Positions 597-40,771 are shown, counted from the stretch's first letter. The stretch is 40,771 nucleotides of DNA from Escherichia phage BUCT789 (PQ999132.1); one strand, 5' to 3'. Numbers and translations are program-made. Notes: generated by a model from the sequence alone, not told the origin.

Positions 597-2855
597 CTAT
601 TCCAAATCTTCCTCGGTCGCTATCAGCATCTCATTCGGTTCGTATATCGTCTTCGGTCTTAATCTGTCCCCCATCTTTTCAGGTATCCGGTATGTGCCTG
701 GTATAACTTCACCGTTAACATCGCACCCGAGCATCAACTCACCGTCTTTCAGCATCTTCTCAAGATGGTGGTTGGTGATGGCGTGGTCCCCCGAGTTCGC
801 CACTATCTGCCGTTGGGTGAAACCTCGTCCGGTGTCGTCTGACTGTTGCAGGTCTTCCAACGCGGCAAGTATTGATTCCTTACGCCCTTCATCCTTCCCA
901 CGTTTTACCGCGTTCTTTACGTTTTCTTTACCTTCTTTCGTCAGCCCTTCTTCCCGCTCTTTCTCCTCGTCAGTCTTGAACGGCTCGAAGCCCCACGGCA
1001 TCAGTACAAGCGCCTTGTGTGGTTCTGGCAGGTCGAGGTTTACGATTGTGCCATATTCCTCTGTGCTACCGAGGAACTCAACCGCGCGGTACTCTTTCGG
1101 CGGCGGCGCTTCACGGAACTGTACCGACTCCAGCACCATGCCAACCGTCTTCTGTTGAGGCCCATGCTTAAATTTCGAGTGGTATACGTTTATCTGGCGG
1201 TCGGTAGCGCGCTCAATTGTCAGCTCCACATCAACACCGGCATACAGCGCCCCGCTACCACGGGCTTTCTTTCCACCCTTAGGCGTATGGTGGACGACAC
1301 CCACAGCGGCTTTAGTTGCGTCGCGTACTTTTTTAAGGATGGCGATAACTTTACCCATGCCAATTGCAGTTGATGAACTGTTCTCGTCGAACTTGTCAAT
1401 TGTCAGGGCCAGCGTCTGGTTGAGGGTATCGAACGCGACCATACCAATAGGCTCGTCCCCTGCAGCTTCACGCATCCTGCGGATTAGCGCGGGGATTTTT
1501 TTATCACCATGCGCGGCGAGCACCTCACCCATATCAATGACATGTACGTAATCTTTACCTTCCTCGCCATATTTAGCCGCGAGTGCATCTATACGTGTGC
1601 GGGTAGCTGCGCCGCCCTCACCGTCGATATAAAAATGGTGGCAACGCTGCGTATCAGCTCCCGCAAACCGGTATCCGGCGGCGCTCAGGTACATCATCCC
1701 CAGCGTATAGAACGATTTGTACGTGCCGGATTCCCCAACAATATCCCAGATGCAATCTGACGGCATGTACCCCTCAACGACGAAATCAGCCTTTACCGGT
1801 TCAGGTAGCTCGTCCTCTTCTGAGTCATCATCGTCTTCCAGGTCGTCGAGGCTGCATGAAACAGATTCACGCACACCCCATCCGATAGCCTCGGCGACTT
1901 CACTGAACGGCAGCCCGGTCGCATCACACGCGTATTTCCACACTTCTTTCGGGGGCATTCCTTCGGTCGCGGCAATGTCGGTGTCGTGAATCATGGTTAC
2001 GTTCGGCGCTTCGTATCCCTCGCGCGGGAAACATAACAGGAAGTCGTCCGGGCGTGGTGTCGGGTCGCTGTAGTTTTCTGCGTGTTCTGGCGTAGCTGGC
2101 ATCTTAAGGCCACGCGGCGTCATGATGCCGCCGTACTCGAATGCCAGTGCTTCAAACGCATCTGTAAACGCGGTGCGCAGTTCTTCCGGTATCTGGTAAT
2201 CAGATGCGCTGCTGATGTCAACGGCTGGGACGCCTTCCAGTAACTCATCAGGGTCAATCAGGTCGTTGCGGCGCGACCAGATAACGGTAGCGCCGACAGG
2301 AGGCAAGTACATCGGCTGCGAAAGAGTGAACCCGCTGCGGTCGGCGCCCATGCCTTTGAAGAAGTGTTCCAGTAACCCATGACGAACGCGGATGATGTCA
2401 CCGCCTTCAACCGGGCTGGCCAGCGGCATGACGACACGAAAGCGCGGTGACTCATCTGTATGTGACGCCGTGGTATACAGGCACATCGCCCGGCGGCTAC
2501 GCTTAACCAGGCGCACCGCTTCTTGATACTCTTCCGGTGTTGCACTGTCGAAGTCCAGATACGCCAGCGACGATTTGCTTACAGACGCGTCACAGCGATA
2601 GAAGAAGCCTTTACGCGCTTGCTTAAAGTCACCGGTTTCCGGGTCTTTTACGGTGCTGTGCGTAGAGTCGCACGCGGCTGTGATATAGCCGGGGGCGGTC
2701 TTCGGGTTAATCCCGTCGCGAACGGCATCGAGCGGCTGAATTAACTCTTTCAGGTCGTCCAGTGTTGCCGTGTGTGTGGTTCTGACGTTTATATCCTTTT
2801 TCTCTGCCCGCGCGTTGCGACGTGACCACGAGTAGGATAAAATTACATCGGACAT
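597..2855 (-). CDS. DNA primase/helicase (RepA-like RecA-fold ATPase with N-terminal primase-like domain)
   Basis: 752 aa; Walker A GESGTYKS in the C-terminal half; large N-terminal domain; ends in EEDLE. Confidence 0.75.
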   Translation of the reverse strand: MSDVILSYSWSRRNARAEKKDINVRTTHTATLDDLKELIQPLDAVRDGINPKTAPGYITAACDSTHSTVKDPETGDFKQARKGFFYRCDASVSKSSLAYLDFDSATPEEYQEAVRLVKRSRRAMCLYTTASHTDESPRFRVVMPLASPVEGGDIIRVRHGLLEHFFKGMGADRSGFTLSQPMYLPPVGATVIWSRRNDLIDPDELLEGVPAVDISSASDYQIPEELRTAFTDAFEALAFEYGGIMTPRGLKMPATPEHAENYSDPTPRPDDFLLCFPREGYEAPNVTMIHDTDIAATEGMPPKEVWKYACDATGLPFSEVAEAIGWGVRESVSCSLDDLEDDDDSEEDELPEPVKADFVVEGYMPSDCIWDIVGESGTYKSFYTLGMMYLSAAGYRFAGADTQRCHHFYIDGEGGAATRTRIDALAAKYGEEGKDYVHVIDMGEVLAAHGDKKIPALIRRMREAAGDEPIGMVAFDTLNQTLALTIDKFDENSSSTAIGMGKVIAILKKVRDATKAAVGVVHHTPKGGKKARGSGALYAGVDVELTIERATDRQINVYHSKFKHGPQQKTVGMVLESVQFREAPPPKEYRAVEFLGSTEEYGTIVNLDLPEPHKALVLMPWGFEPFKTDEEKEREEGLTKEGKENVKNAVKRGKDEGRKESILAALEDLQQSDDTGRGFTQRQIVANSGDHAITNHHLEKMLKDGELMLGCDVNGEVIPGTYRIPEKMGDRLRPKTIYEPNEMLIATEEDLE

Positions 2856-2913
2856 GTTGTATTTCCTTCAGCAAGTAATTTGGCCTCGGCGTTCACCGCG
2901 TCGGGGCTTTCTT

Positions 2914-3147
2914 TTATTCCAGGTCTTCTAAAGTAGCGGTCATTCCGCGAACTTCAGCAACAGCACTATATTTCCCGCCAACATTCTTCACGACACCGGA
3001 TTTAACCAGTACCTTCAACGACCCTTCAATAATGGCGGAACTATAGTACCTAAAATAACTACGGCGCAAGTCCATAACGCTGCACGACCCTTTTTTACGG
3101 GTTAATGAAACGACTGCCGTAAATACGCGGGACTGGAACTCGGTCAT
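2914..3147 (-). CDS. hypothetical protein (77 aa)
   Basis: ORF overlaps the upstream gene stop by 4 nt (coupled); C-terminus LEDLE. Confidence 0.55.
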   Translation of the reverse strand: MTEFQSRVFTAVVSLTRKKGSCSVMDLRRSYFRYYSSAIIEGSLKVLVKSGVVKNVGGKYSAVAEVRGMTATLEDLE

Positions 3148-3347
3148 TTTACATTCTCCTTAATCCACGCTTCCACTTTCTCCGGGTCGAAAGTACCCGG
3201 CTGCCGGCGGCCCATAATACGGATACAACAATCCGGGAACTTCCCACTCTTTAACCAGTTATTCAGCGTGCGACGGGTAACCCCGATACGCTCGGCTACT
3301 TCATTCTGTGTCATTCTCAAATCCCCATTATCAGTTAACGAAAACAA
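3144..3347 (-). CDS. AlpA/excisionase-like HTH DNA-binding protein
   Basis: Motif MTQNEVAERIGVTRRTLNNWLKSGKFP; start may instead be the internal ATG at 3314, which has a GGGGA RBS. Confidence 0.65.
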   Translation of the reverse strand: MFSLTDNGDLRMTQNEVAERIGVTRRTLNNWLKSGKFPDCCIRIMGRRQPGTFDPEKVEAWIKENVK

Positions 3348-3748
3348 GTATACATTGCGAATAATGGGAAATCAAACATAATCGCACCTATTGACATTAT
3401 GAAAATCTTCGTTTAAGGTGCTTCTGTATCTTAGTTACTTTGATTCTTGTTCACCTTGTAAAACCCGCCGAAAACGAGCGCCCAACGCGAAGTGTTAGGC
3501 GGCAGTTTACTGAACATTCGAATTATCGTAACTTTCCTTCCTAAGTATCTCCGGTTGCCCTGGGCAAGCTCTATTCTCATCGACGGCATATCTCTTAAGT
3601 ATCTGATTTTCTTAATGTGCCGTAGATTCGCAACCGTAAAAATGTAACGATTAGTGGGCAGGCTTAAGGCCTGCCCTTTAGTTACCAAGTAATAAGAATA
3701 AAGGCACAACCCTCACTAAAGAACCACAACGGCAACGTAACTTTTCTC

Positions 3749-3777
3749 TTGCACACCCCAACATAATAGGATACTAT
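3749..3777 (+). promoter_or_regulatory. promoter, TTGCAC-N17-TACTAT with conserved spacer ATAATAGG
   Basis: TTGCAC 3749-3754, TACTAT 3772-3777; conserved leader TTATCGAAACGAG then RBS GAGGAG; near-identical copies at 5188-5216 and 22864-22892. Confidence 0.55.
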
Positions 3778-3811
3778 TCACTTATCGAAACGAGACAGAG
3801 GAGTGAGGGTT

Positions 3812-4003
3812 ATGTTTAAACGTGGTCAGTTGGCTAAAACGAAGCGAGGCGAACAGTACGTAATAGTGTTGCAGGACGAGAACGAGTATGACGAGGATAA
3901 GCTGGTTGACGTATGGGGTCTGGTAAGAAAGAAACCCGGGTTCGCCTTACGCGATAATCTGAAACTCATCGGCAACAATTTTAAATTCAAAGGGGTGAAG
4001 TGA
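3812..4003 (+). CDS. hypothetical protein
   Basis: ATG 3812 with GAGGAG RBS; track ORF 3803..4003 uses an upstream GTG. Confidence 0.6.
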   Translation: MFKRGQLAKTKRGEQYVIVLQDENEYDEDKLVDVWGLVRKKPGFALRDNLKLIGNNFKFKGVK

Positions 4004-4257
4004 TGGAAGAATTAATTTGTATTGAATCCAGCCAGGATGTGCAGGATTGGTTTGTTAAAGGTAACAGATATTCGTCCGGAGTATATTCCGACGGCCGTCG
4101 ATATGTTTTAGACGAAGACGGTGATGAATGGGATTTAAATGACGATGTAAGAGAAACTTTAACCGTTAGCAGGGTCAATGCTGTTTCTGCCTCATTCACA
4201 ACGGCATCGAATCATGATGCTCGTGCCGACGACTCTGAGGGAGGTTGCCGTGAATAA
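4003..4257 (+). CDS. acidic hypothetical protein
   Basis: ATG overlaps the upstream stop (TGATG); D/E-rich product. Confidence 0.6.
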   Translation: MEELICIESSQDVQDWFVKGNRYSSGVYSDGRRYVLDEDGDEWDLNDDVRETLTVSRVNAVSASFTTASNHDARADDSEGGCRE

Positions 4258-4305
4258 TTACCCGTTTATTTTAATAGTCAGCGCCGTTTATGTGGTGCAT
4301 GCGTT

Positions 4306-4689: not shown

Positions 4690-4875
4690 ATGGGTGAGTG
4701 GATTAAGTGTAGTGAGCGGATGCCTGAGCCTTATGAATACGTTCTTGTAACTGATTGTTTTGTTGGCTGTGAGGTTATGCGTGTTAATTCAGATGGCTAC
4801 TGGGGGCCTGCAAAGAGTTTATATCACGGTGATATAACGCACTGGATGCCGTTACCTGAGCCGCCGGAGGTGTGA
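4690..4875 (+). CDS. DUF551-like small phage protein
   Basis: 61 aa with EW...PE...VLV...HWMPLPEPPE pattern recalled for DUF551; not verified by search. Confidence 0.55.
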   Translation: MGEWIKCSERMPEPYEYVLVTDCFVGCEVMRVNSDGYWGPAKSLYHGDITHWMPLPEPPEV

Positions 4876-5009
4876 TGTTCAATAGTTTGGGATTTTACTG
4901 AGTGACTTACGCTGCTACACAGCAGCGTACAACTTTAGATTAGTGTCGTCAAAAAGCGACACTTTCACCAAACGCAACAATAGAAGCGACTATTGCAGGA
5001 GATGCAACA

Positions 5010-7488: not shown

Positions 7489-7615
7489 TGGACGAATATG
7501 AAGGCGTTTAGTAAACTTATCCCTACGCTGTTTGTGCTTGCATACTAAGCCCCGGTAAACCCGAAGCAGCAGCCCAAGCGGTGGAGACTGCGTAGGGTTC
7601 AGGGGCTTATGACCG

Positions 7616-7645
7616 AAACCCGGACCGCGAATCCGGGTTTTATTT
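7616..7645 (+). terminator. rho-independent terminator
   Basis: cccgg/ccggg stem followed by ttttatttt. Confidence 0.6.
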
Positions 7646-7651
7646 TACCAA

Positions 7652-7680
7652 TTGACACCTAAGACTAATCCGACGATACT
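7652..7680 (+). promoter_or_regulatory. sigma70-like promoter, TTGACA-N17-GATACT
   Basis: TTGACA 7652-7657, 17-nt spacer, GATACT 7675-7680; only about 45 nt upstream of a terminator. Confidence 0.4.
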
Positions 7681-7686
7681 TAAATC

Positions 7687-7750
7687 ACCTCCTGTTCCAT
7701 CCCTCTGCTCTCCAGTTTTATCCCGGCCCTGACCCAGCCGGGATTTTTTT
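7687..7750 (+). ncRNA. candidate small RNA (about 60-65 nt) between promoter and terminator
   Basis: No ORF; contains AUCACCUCCU resembling the 16S rRNA 3' end, then terminator hairpin. Confidence 0.3.
7720..7750 (+). terminator. rho-independent terminator
   Basis: atcccggc/gccgggat stem followed by a 7-T tract. Confidence 0.65.
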
Positions 7751-7772
7751 ATCTGTTTTCCACAATGACTAG

Positions 7773-7801
7773 TTGACTATTACCATCGACCCTATTATAT
7801 T
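7773..7801 (+). promoter_or_regulatory. sigma70-like promoter, TTGACT-N17-TATATT
   Basis: TTGACT 7773-7778, exact 17-nt spacer, TATATT 7796-7801; drives the 7835-9589 small-gene block. Confidence 0.55.
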
Positions 7802-7834
7802 TACTCCATCGACAACGAGAACGGAGTATAGAAG

Positions 7835-7984
7835 ATGAAAATCACAGATATCGAAGCATTCAAAGACGCACAACTGATGGCACGTATCGCCGTTAGTAAC
7901 CTTAGTAGCAGTATCCCCGCTGACGCGTTCTGGTTCGCAGCGATGCAGACCCTGAAAGCAGCTTATGCAGGAGAGAAGAAATGA
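7835..7984 (+). CDS. small hypothetical protein (49 aa)
   Basis: ATG 7835 after GGAG; ends GEKK with GGAGAGAAGAAATGA junction into the next gene. Confidence 0.45.
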   Translation: MKITDIEAFKDAQLMARIAVSNLSSSIPADAFWFAAMQTLKAAYAGEKK

Positions 7985-14680: not shown

Positions 14681-14686
14681 ACTGAA

Positions 14687-14705
14687 GCCCCGAAAGGGGC
14701 TTTTT
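14687..14705 (+). terminator. rho-independent terminator
   Basis: gcccc-gaaa-ggggc followed by ttttt. Confidence 0.65.
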
Positions 14706-14755
14706 AGCGCCTGCGATTATTCCAGTTATTCCACCGAATTGTAAATGTTGGAATA

Positions 14756-14771
14756 AACTATTCGAATAGTT
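14756..14771. promoter_or_regulatory. perfect 16-bp palindrome AACTATTCGAATAGTT overlapping a -35 element (operator candidate)
   Basis: Exact inverted repeat; shares the ACTATTC core found at the TACTAT promoters. Confidence 0.45.
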
Positions 14772-14798
14772 GACTTTTCACTGAAAATGTGCTAAGCT
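14770..14798 (+). promoter_or_regulatory. sigma70-like promoter, TTGACT-N17-TAAGCT
   Basis: TTGACT 14770-14775, 17-nt spacer, TAAGCT 14793-14798. Confidence 0.45.
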
Positions 14799-14804
14799 CC
14801 ACCT

Positions 14805-15005
14805 GAGCTTGTGAAGTATGAACAAGCGACCGCGGCGCGGGCAGGTAACGGAGCGGGACGTAAGTCCTGAGTGTAGTTACGCTGACGCGTTCGGAAGGGC
14901 CATACTCTATTGCTTGTGTAAAAAGTAACTGGTTTACTGAGATTACGCCGTTTCTATGTTTAAATGATAAGGACTAGCGCCCCGCTTTATGGCGGGGCTT
15001 TACTT
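14805..15005 (+). ncRNA. candidate non-coding RNA (about 200 nt) between promoter and terminator
   Basis: Only a 36-codon ORF without convincing RBS; GC-rich self-complementary stretches; ends in terminator hairpin 14979-15005. Confidence 0.3.
14979..15005 (+). terminator. terminator-like hairpin
   Basis: gccccgc-tttatg-gcggggc followed by tttactt. Confidence 0.45.
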
Positions 15006-15022
15006 ATCGAGAAAGGAGAAAC

Positions 15023-15409
15023 ATGAATCTTAAAGCAACTGTCGTAGCAGGAGCATGTTTCATCATCCTGTTATACACGCACGGCTACTATCAATACCGC
15101 AGCGGCTGGAACGGAGGCAGGGCTAATCTAGTTTCGCAGCAACAGCAGAAAGCACAGGCTGAGTTAGCGAAGAAAACACAACGGCAGCAGCAGGACGAAT
15201 CAAAGGCCGCCGCCGCTGACAGCGAAGGCAAGACGAAATCAGAGGTGATTACCCGTGAAGTCGTTAAGTACATTAAAACGCCTGGCCGCAGCGTGTGCAC
15301 TTTCGACGATGCTCGCGTCCTGCTCAAGTCCCGCGCCGTCGCAAACGCCAATTCCATCCCCGGATACGACGATGATGCAGCCGCCATGCAAACTGGCCGC
15401 GCCAAGTAG
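15023..15409 (+). CDS. Rz: Rz-like i-spanin
   Basis: 128 aa; AAGGAG RBS; N-terminal TMD then Q/A/K-rich coiled-coil region; contains the Rz1 gene in the +1 frame. Confidence 0.75.
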   Translation: MNLKATVVAGACFIILLYTHGYYQYRSGWNGGRANLVSQQQQKAQAELAKKTQRQQQDESKAAAADSEGKTKSEVITREVVKYIKTPGRSVCTFDDARVLLKSRAVANANSIPGYDDDAAAMQTGRAK

Positions 15410-40052: not shown

Positions 40053-40321
40053 GCTCTGCTCTCCCACTGGTCAATTAAATGTCTTGTCTTATAGTCACAG
40101 TGCATGGCCCAGCTGTACATCGACTCAAAGACATAAAAGTCAGGTTTGGCGAATGTCGTGCGCTTAATCTGTGACACGTGTCGGCCTATATCTTTAGGCC
40201 GAGGTACTTTGCCTAAGTACGCCATCTCTTCCATCTGGTGCGCACCTGACGGCGCACGTAGCAGCCATAGCGCCTCTGTGCCATCCCGTCTGTCTACGGC
40301 GCGGTAGAGTTGGTAAATCAT
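40049..40321 (-). CDS. hypothetical protein (90 aa)
   Basis: RBS GAGGGT upstream on the minus strand. Confidence 0.55.
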   Translation of the reverse strand: MIYQLYRAVDRRDGTEALWLLRAPSGAHQMEEMAYLGKVPRPKDIGRHVSQIKRTTFAKPDFYVFESMYSWAMHCDYKTRHLIDQWESRA

Positions 40322-40365
40322 AATTCCGACCCTCAGTTAAAGCGGCCAGAAGGCCGCGAGATAGT

Positions 40366-40771
40366 TATTCTTCTTCGAAGTACTTGTTCTTGATTGCCGT
40401 CAGGCGTTTCAGGTATTCGGCCAGGTCTTCGTCTTTAATCGCGGCAATCTTCATCTTCTTACCGGTGAACTCTTCCAGCAGTTCATCGGAATCATCACAC
40501 GCGGCATCGCTCGGACCTTCGTTAATCGCATCGTCGATAGCCTGAATCTGGTCACGCAGAGACTGGTAGTCGACTTCTTGTTTCTCTTCTTCCGGTTCTG
40601 GCGTATGTTCCTCTACTTTAGCTTTACGAGGTTTGCGTTTCGGCTTCTCTTCTTCTGCCGGTTTAGTGTCAACTAGGTCTTCACCTTCGACCGTGATTTC
40701 TTTCGTTACTTCTTTTACAACAGTAGGCGTGATTGTTGCAGTTTCTGCTACACCACTGTCGACGTCTTTAC
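40366..40771 (-). CDS. acidic hypothetical protein, 3' part (same gene as 1..239)
   Basis: Stop TAA at 40366-40368; frame continuous with 1..239 once the 127-bp duplicated end is collapsed. Confidence 0.6.
40645..40771. repeat. 127-bp terminal duplication of positions 1-127
   Basis: Exact identity by direct comparison; it lies inside a coding sequence, so most simply an assembly overlap of a circular or circularly permuted genome. Confidence 0.9.

Follow-up and report, generated by a model that had tools for sequence, protein, structure and literature searches.

A structured leader RNA candidate in the divergent early control region of Escherichia phage BUCT789 and its Guernseyvirinae relatives

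The window analyzed here is a stretch of 40,771 nucleotides (nt) from Escherichia phage BUCT789 (PQ999132.1), and our subject is the 464-nt intergenic gap at positions 3348–3811, including the structured leader RNA that one of its two outward-facing promoters is predicted to make. Judged by its sequence, BUCT789 is a Kagunavirus of the Guernseyvirinae. A database similarity search with the 1-kb stretch around the gap gave 98.3% identity to Escherichia phage Henuyfy11N and 383 record matches, nearly all from Kagunavirus or Jerseyvirus (Guernseyvirinae). On the minus strand to the left lie the genes of a 56-amino-acid (aa) protein (3147–3314), which is an HTH_17/excisionase-like DNA binder with a helix-turn-helix (HTH), and of a 752-aa protein (597–2855) that carries an AAA_25 helicase domain (RepA-like) and is labeled replicative helicase-primase in relatives. 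The gap is bordered by the ATG of this HTH gene (3314, minus strand) and the ATG of the first rightward gene (3812, plus strand), and a mechanical TTG-start version of the HTH open reading frame (ORF) reaches 3347.

The original prediction had described this region as the largest non-coding gap and had regarded the minus-strand ORF at 3431..3709 as probably spurious, and both statements held. Once that ORF is discounted, the gap is the longest ORF-free stretch (464–497 nt), followed by stretches of 342 nt (14681–15022) and 333 nt (7502–7834). The ORF itself begins with TTG and encodes 92 aa, and in relatives it is 68, 85 or 115 aa long, broken or absent, with neither its start, its end nor its frame kept. 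Every other ORF of at least 25 aa in the gap, those on the plus strand included, shifts in start, stop or frame or is lost among close relatives. Most relatives carry no gene annotation here, and a few records list short ‘hypothetical proteins’. Read from these comparisons, the region is non-coding. Its plus strand folds with a z-score of −3.35 over 3348–3811 and of −4.7 over 3426–3683.

The gap is conserved across related phages, with matches in 449 phage records (Guernseyvirinae), of which 298 cover at least 80% of its length. Between BUCT789 and the Salmonella Jerseyviruses, DNA identity is ~60% in the primase gene (~64% between the primase proteins), ~85% in the HTH gene and 42–64% over 3400–3550, and it peaks at 82–96% over 3550–3750. 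The locus is mosaic, and we refer to the arrangement found in the window as type A. Type D (SETP7-like) has 3315–3606 in common with it, type C has 3594–3815, and type B only the final 100 nt. One layout is common to all types, in which a rightward promoter 75–120 nt from the HTH start is followed by 200–300 nt without ORFs that open with a long hairpin, and then by a further GC-rich hairpin, the promoter that is repeated in the phage, and the first of the early genes. Fold z-scores of the plus strand range from −2.0 to −7.0 in types A, C and D. A cassette of ~200 nt (equivalent to 3604–3790 of the window), which comprises the 3′ module of the leader and the repeated promoter, is present in Kenya-K3 (locus L007) and absent from SETP7 (L037), with junctions AAGTA/TCTGA and TCGAA/ATGCC. 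Some Jerseyviruses thus carry two tandem hairpin-plus-promoter cassettes. For phages ‘pink’ and ‘demigod’ we considered whether the record ends are physical genome ends, and for S4lw whether the ‘terminal repeat’ is one; both readings were rejected in favor of arbitrary openings or assembly overlap.

Two promoters face away from each other at the left side of the gap. A consensus scan placed a sigma-70-type promoter, here called P_L, on the minus strand at 3347..3375 (TTGATT 3375–3370, 17 nt, TATACT 3352–3347; 9/12 matches), from which the operon of the HTH, 77-aa and primase-helicase genes would be transcribed leftward. Both of its hexamers are kept in the type A and D relatives. The rightward promoter, P_R, was found on the plus strand at 3391..3419 by exact pattern match and combines a perfect −35 element (TTGACA, 3391–3396) and a 17-nt spacer with TAAGGT (3414–3419); it would fire rightward, with transcription predicted to start at about G3426. 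A TTGACA element had been proposed at about 3401, and the element is real, although it lies ~10 nt from that place. The pattern TTGACW-N17-TAAGNT matches exactly twice in the window, at 3391 and at 14770–14798, against a chance expectation that we estimate ourselves at ~0.04 exact matches, and both copies sit in ORF-free gaps and point at the genes downstream. P_R is kept in all type A and D relatives (with a −10 element of TAAGGT or TAAGTT), and in types B and C its place is taken by an equivalent promoter.

Just after P_R, folding and covariation define an irregular 100-nt hairpin on the plus strand (SL1, 3433..3533). Its helices are P1 (3433–3438/3528–3533), P2 (3441–3446/3520–3525), P3 (3448–3453/3511–3516), P4 (3458–3462/3506–3510) and P5 (3465–3469/3498–3502), and a variable apical stem-loop follows. 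The same 100-nt hairpin is predicted in every type A and D variant, whereas the apical 40–50 nt occur in at least six unrelated-looking sequence versions and carry indels of non-multiples of three. We aligned 32 distinct sequences by hand on the structure and then with MAFFT (alignment A2). In this alignment, 99.2% of the 736 cells in P1–P4 are paired and 7 of the 23 pairs have changed on both sides, while each of the five P5 pairs shows two or three pair types. When the 3′ partner was slid by 1–3 columns as a control, 25–48% of the P1–P4 cells were paired, and the covariation score of SL1 was reached by none of 500 shuffles. Compensatory change in SL1 is thus above these controls and supports a structured RNA. 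Over 28 pairs in the 32 sequences there are 49 G.T cells versus 3 A.C cells, which favors a single-stranded form of the plus strand. With regard to a wider distribution, a metagenome scan with a gapped SL1 pattern yielded only chance matches (120 of 120 loci; the pattern was too loose), and scans of viral contigs with SL1 patterns gave no new members, only known contigs and chance matches.

The central part of the predicted transcript begins with a C/U-rich stretch, TTCCTTCCTAAGTATCTCC (3534–3552). It is followed on the plus strand by a small hairpin (3555–3567) with CTCTATT behind it (3569–3575), and by an imperfect inverted repeat (3579–3591/3615–3627) that encloses the motif TAAGTATCTGATTT (3596–3609). 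CTCTATT and WAAGTAWCTGRWWT reappear in the type B and type D versions as well as in a related leader of the late operon (see below). No helix with covariation support was found within 3534–3643. A helix between 3579–3591 and 3615–3627 was rejected since it shows no covariation and a G-to-A change at 3585 gives an A.C mismatch in many sequences. An attenuator-type pairing of 3562–3570 with 3668–3676 was likewise rejected, as the one informative substitution (3669) backs the terminator pairing.

That terminator-like structure is an extended 3′ hairpin on the plus strand (SL3, 3644..3685), with an outer helix of GTAAC (3644–3648) and GTTAC (3681–3685), an inner GC stem (3656–3676; nine pairs, seven of them G-C, and a loop of three) and the tail TTTAGTTAC (3677–3685). 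The GC-rich hairpin followed by TTTAGTT is exactly as originally predicted, and it passes the terminator scan as one of six terminator-like sites in 2800–4300, where 1.7 are expected. Pair 3663/3669 compensates from C-G to T-A, the loop varies freely, and types A and C show no change in the tail UUUAGUUAC. At the place of SL3, the L019-type, B and D variants have another GC-rich hairpin with a UAAC, UUCG or UUAC tetraloop and no clear U-tract. Taken from the predicted start to the end of SL3, the P_R RNA would span ~3426–3685 of the plus strand (~260 nt).

Between SL3 and the first early gene lies a second promoter with its own upstream region. The A+T-rich plus-strand segment at 3686..3748 (AAGAATAAAGGCAC ... 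CAACGGCAACGTAACT), which may serve as an upstream part of that promoter, is nearly invariant among type A and C relatives, and in SETP7-type phages AAGAATAAA(A)AGGCAC again lies 5′ of the corresponding promoter cassette. The promoter itself (3749..3777, plus strand; TTGCAC 3749–3754, 17 nt, TACTAT 3772–3777) was correctly recognized in the original prediction as a conserved one, and it corresponds to the PHIRE ‘phage promoter’ in published Kagunavirus genomes (PMC9825357). It overlaps the palindromic core AATAGgataCTATT. The core ATAATAGnnTACTATT has nine copies in the window (274, 318, 3763, 5202, 13137 on the minus strand, 22863 on the minus strand, 34827, 34829 on the minus strand, and 38483), whereas 0.2 are expected. 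It overlaps the −10 region and contains the inverted repeat AATAG...CTATT, and it may double as an operator. The 5′ untranslated region (UTR) of the first early gene (3778..3811, plus strand) carries the ribosome-binding site GAGGAGTGAGGG ahead of the ATG at 3812, and its conservation extends to Serratia phage Tsm2. We also observed a 13-nt inverted repeat (3705–3717/3802–3814; 12 of 13 positions complementary) through which CACAACCCTCACT (3705–3717) could pair with this gene's ribosome-binding site and start codon; in most relatives the pairing is weaker. In type B leaders there is a (CTCA)n microsatellite whose copy number varies (at ~2156–2184 of locus L027, on the minus strand of the locus) and which is complementary to GAGTGAG in the ribosome-binding site of the first early gene.

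The second match to the P_R pattern heads a related leader in the late region of the window (14770..15008, plus strand). It lies in the ORF-free gap at 14681–15022, directly 5′ of the genes for the i-spanin, the o-spanin, the scaffold and the major capsid protein, and comprises a promoter (TTGACT-17-TAAGCT, 14770–14798), a long GC-rich hairpin domain (14803–14912), a central motif, AAAGTAACTGGTTT, and a homologue of SL3 (14966–15008) ahead of the ATG at 15023. The motif AAAGTAACTGGTTT resembles 3596–3609 and its equivalents in types B and D. The flanks of SL3, AAATG(A)TAA(C/G)GAYTAGY upstream and CTTTA(G/C)TTAYC downstream, are common to 14962–15008, and the inner stem of the late homologue is wholly different in sequence but still pairs, with a C-G to A-T compensation at the late locus. 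There were 180 record matches to the late leader at 82–100% identity (169 at 95% or more), Salmonella phages included, and against Jerseyvirus ER15 it is a local conservation maximum at 94–100% identity. The plus strand folds at −74.2 kcal/mol versus −56.6 kcal/mol for the minus strand, a difference of 17.6 kcal/mol. Using RNAalifold and a covariance model (R1) searched over 46 sources, we obtained 27 distinct sequences in which 98% of cells are paired, both partners have changed in five pairs and two G.U pairs never vary, while slid controls had 29–40% of cells paired.

At the early site, the two kinds of leader are also exchanged for one another. Other Kagunaviruses have a copy of the late-type leader at the early site; these type B early elements share 77–88% identity with the late leader, and two late-type copies occur in ~43 phage records and several viral contigs. 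The relationship between the early and late elements is drawn from their promoter class, the order of their short motifs, SL3 and this mutual replacement at the same site. Since no promoter lies between the SL3 homologue and the late genes, the RNA at the late locus must be a leader.

Taking these observations together, we read the gap as the divergent early control region of a virulent siphophage, with back-to-back host-type promoters and with the P_R transcript as a member of a structured leader RNA family, an interpretation in which our confidence is about evenly balanced. Membership in a phage-specific leader family is suggested because the same kit heads the late operon and the kits are interchangeable at the early site. 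The existence of an element acting at the RNA level appears highly probable, whereas a role in cis in the control of termination and read-through is a tentative proposal, which we put first as the most economical mechanism. In this scheme, P_R would transcribe rightward into ~260 nt that encode no protein and that consist of SL1, the conserved C/U-rich middle and SL3 with UUUAGUUAC. SL3 would stop part of the polymerases just before they reach the first early gene's own promoter, and the leader would act in cis as a checkpoint for termination or read-through, with the logic of lambda P_R′-6S RNA-t_R′ or of the HK022 put sites. Once released, the 260-nt RNA could be a by-product or an additional product acting in trans.

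The known systems offer partial likenesses. The late leader of lambda combines a constitutive-looking sigma-70 promoter, P_R′, with a ~200-nt non-coding leader (qut, 6S RNA) and the intrinsic terminator t_R′ before the lysis and head genes. A similar order is seen in the late copy (14770–15008), with a promoter, a ~200-nt leader and a terminator directly 5′ of late genes. Unlike in lambda, however, no Q homologue was found by a Pfam scan of 45 ORFs, the leader is dominated by a long covarying hairpin, and the kit occurs a second time, at the early promoter, where a promoter of its own comes behind it. HK022 putL and putR are cis-acting antiterminator RNAs of ~70 nt with two stem-loops. In layout alone, the present elements resemble them as related structured RNAs just after different promoters of one phage, with structure conserved more than sequence and no dedicated protein evident; in contrast to put, which we compare by description alone, SL1 consists of one 100-nt hairpin with ~150 nt more behind it. 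The hairpin at 3555–3567 with GCUCUAUUC behind it (3568–3576) is reminiscent of the boxA-boxB arrangement of lambda nut and rrn sites, as GCUCUAUUC resembles boxA (CGCUCUUA / GCUCUUUA) and every variant, like the late leader, has the CTCTATT core. This can serve only as a lead, considering that the boxA match covers ~6/8 positions and is without statistical support, and that the 45 ORFs include no N homologue.

A more specific extension of the cis proposal is that the Guernseyvirinae RNA elements act on the host polymerase, either protein-free (put-like) or through an unrecognized small phage protein, so that one copy would gate the early operon and another the late lysis/head operon. We regard this as improbable. 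The fast-evolving apical stem of SL1 would in that case be a specificity module swapped between phages like an immunity region.

Several observations weigh against the leader interpretation and its cis mechanism. The −10 element of P_R (TAAGGT) agrees with the consensus at only three of six positions, although it retains the A at position 2 and the T at position 6, and P_R was not called by the promoter scan. The tail of SL3, UUUAGUUACC, has five U in eight positions and is interrupted; it passes the scan but is weaker than the U5–U7 tails of the terminators at 7620–7647, 7722–7751 and 14690–14708. The D (SETP7-type) and L019-type variants have a hairpin without a U-tract. The strand of SL1 is not settled by folding energy or z-score, as several Jerseyvirus variants fold equally well or better on the minus strand; its alignment was adjusted manually to fit the structure, and much of its covariation tracks the single split between Kagunavirus and Jerseyvirus. 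Early read-through would be dispensable for the early genes because their own promoter follows SL3. The Pfam scan of the 45 window ORFs revealed no Q- or N-type antiterminator (NinH, HTH_3 and HTH_17 were found), the profile hidden Markov model and the covariance model of the late type find neither the early element of the window nor a third copy, and the literature on this phage group contains no description of the element, only PHIRE/ARNold lists of promoters and terminators. Beyond these points, the same scan showed that the window encodes a family A DNA polymerase, an SNF2-type helicase, an Enc34-type protein binding single-stranded DNA, a PD-(D/E)XK nuclease and the NinH-like protein.

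The strongest alternative is that P_R to SL3 makes a stand-alone small RNA (sRNA) of ~260 nt that acts in trans, titrating or pairing with host or phage RNAs or proteins (e.g., through the anti-Shine-Dalgarno-like C/U-rich stretch at 3534–3552), and has no role in cis. The element does form a discrete promoter-to-terminator unit ahead of an independent promoter, its middle is strongly conserved in sequence and apparently unpaired, and a similar layout of promoter, short CU-rich RNA, terminator and promoter exists at 7653–7800. However, complementarity to the phage genome is at the chance level (matches of 10–11 nt, equal to the shuffled expectation), and duplex energies with phage ribosome-binding sites are no better than those of shuffled queries. 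In addition, the late relative is necessarily a leader, and variants that lack a U-tract would release no discrete RNA. We consider an exclusively trans-acting sRNA unlikely, if still the best placed of the competing explanations. The unit around 7620–7800 is itself sRNA-like. A terminator at ~7620–7647 is followed by TTGACA (7653)-17-TACTTA and a ~70-nt C/U-rich transcript with CACCUCCU, which is like the anti-Shine-Dalgarno end of 16S rRNA; then come a strong terminator (7722–7751) and a promoter, TTGACT (7773) ... TATATT, for the gene at 7835. Upstream of the unit, at ~7550–7608, a GC-rich hairpin carries the apical loop CCCAA, which is similar to the loop of SL1.

It is also conceivable, if rather doubtful, that the region is an RNA-processing or mRNA-stability element, with SL1 and SL3 as RNase III duplexes or as protective 5′ and 3′ hairpins. 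RNase III hairpins of the T7 early region and the lambda N leader lie in untranslated parts of early transcripts. SL1 shares with them the character of a long, imperfect, untranslated hairpin in which pairing is kept while sequence is free: it amounts to a ~30-bp duplex with internal loops, and such hairpins head two major operons. The T7 and lambda sites differ, however, in being ~50–60 nt long, intergenic and without the invariant flanking motifs seen here, and processing alone leaves both the near-invariant middle (3550–3650) and the conserved flanks of SL3 unexplained.

The region had also been proposed as a replication origin because it adjoins the primase-helicase. Such an origin, possibly primed or activated by the P_R transcript, could use SL1 as a single-strand hairpin to be recognized by the adjacent primase-helicase, along the lines of the ssi sites of RSF1010, ColE1 RNA II or the promoter-dependent origins of T7 and T4. 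The neighboring operon with its RepA-like AAA_25 helicase would fit such a role, as would a minimum of the cumulative GC skew at ~3600–3800, a low G+C content (0.38–0.44, which is only moderately low) and the conserved hairpins. The skew minimum does not discriminate, however, because it coincides with the switch in gene orientation. With ColE1, T7 and T4 the region shares a promoter and a structured transcript beside replication genes, but the 3′ end of the RNA has no evident tie to DNA synthesis, and the gap contains neither iterons nor an A+T-rich unwinding element; only two-copy short repeats occur there, and no 6-mer is significantly enriched after correction. Nor is there a cluster of DnaA boxes, as the gap has one box with one mismatch (3356–3364) and no enrichment is seen across the window. 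Conserved bulges and one-strand G.T pairs fit an RNA better than a cruciform.

The distribution of the elements also speaks against an origin. A related element heads the late operon, far from the replication genes, and since this late type replaces the early one in relatives, the element goes with transcription units rather than with the primase gene. In two more distant Guernseyvirinae, Serratia phage Tsm2 and Salmonella phage FSL SP-031 (Cornellvirus), the primase gene has the opposite orientation, toward the early genes, and the leader is not seen by sequence: Tsm2 has only the repeated promoter and 5′ UTR in common with the region, and FSL SP-031 has no significant match. Both phages have repeat clusters just after the primase gene (4709–5000 of locus L204 in FSL SP-031 and 4712–4800 of L205 in Tsm2), with GGGGGAGA several times and CCGCACA in direct and inverted orientation, which look like candidate origin iterons. 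The octamer TGTTCACC, which we take to be the iteron sequence of P4, was dropped as a candidate, being present in a single copy without clustering. A direct-repeat search of 40200–40771 and 1–700 found no better origin candidate in those stretches. Of the two options originally proposed, the regulatory RNA thus stood, with its promoter, covarying 100-nt hairpin and terminator-like hairpin on the plus strand, and the origin did not, given the missing iterons and DnaA-box cluster and the related late element. The origin reading is not supported, and we rate it as a poor prospect.

Sites for DNA-binding proteins are a further feature of the gap. An operator-like palindrome, GTATCT-T-AGTTAC, was read from the sequence at 3426..3438, that is, at +1 to +13 of P_R, and is a candidate binding site for a dimeric HTH regulator. 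Jerseyviruses have a perfect 7-1-7 palindrome (GTAACTT-C-AAGTTAC) at the same place, and in type B phages the palindrome motif lies between P_L and P_R with its orientation reversed. Four invariant AGTTAC/GTAACT half-sites occur in the gap (at 3426–3438, 3528, 3680 and 3737; uncorrected p = 1.5e-4), and two HTH genes are close by. Taken on their own, these features could describe a dense operator array for phage HTH regulators that acts at the DNA level only, with the hairpins as by-products of inverted half-sites. This would not predict compensatory changes in at least 12 pairs of P2–P5 or in the SL3 stems, nor the strand asymmetry of the late leader, and we see very little chance of it as a complete explanation, although DNA-level operators may well be present and probably coexist with the RNA. 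The hexamer ACGGCA/TGCCGT was also considered as a binding site in the gap and dropped; it occurs 76 times on both strands of the whole window (~20 by our own estimate of chance) and is not enriched in the gap. Finally, a protein product of the minus-strand ORF or of another small ORF can practically be dismissed. The ORF exists and a few records annotate such products, but the reading frames on either strand are not kept among close relatives and the SL1 apex carries non-triplet indels.

Returning to the leader interpretation, comparison with known RNAs placed the element in no existing family. Rfam 15 gave no match at gathering thresholds over the whole window, and a permissive search of 3300–3850 gave only chance-level scores (at best ctRNA_p42d with 19.6 bits against 50 and Hrs12 with 17.9 bits against 70). 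E. coli genomes and plasmids contained no homologue of the element. The best-supported view of these sequence comparisons is a new RNA family that would be specific to the Guernseyvirinae and of a known type of element.

Jersey- and Kagunaviruses are among the most frequently isolated phages of Salmonella and E. coli and are used in biocontrol and therapy, but to our knowledge their gene regulation is essentially unstudied. If our interpretation is true, the leader would provide a first handle on the timing of expression in phages without an RNA polymerase of their own, and the RNA databases would gain a new family. The region is carried by 449 sequenced records; it is better annotated as a non-coding control sequence than as a ‘hypothetical protein’, and it is unsuited as a neutral site for opening or engineering the genomes of these phages.

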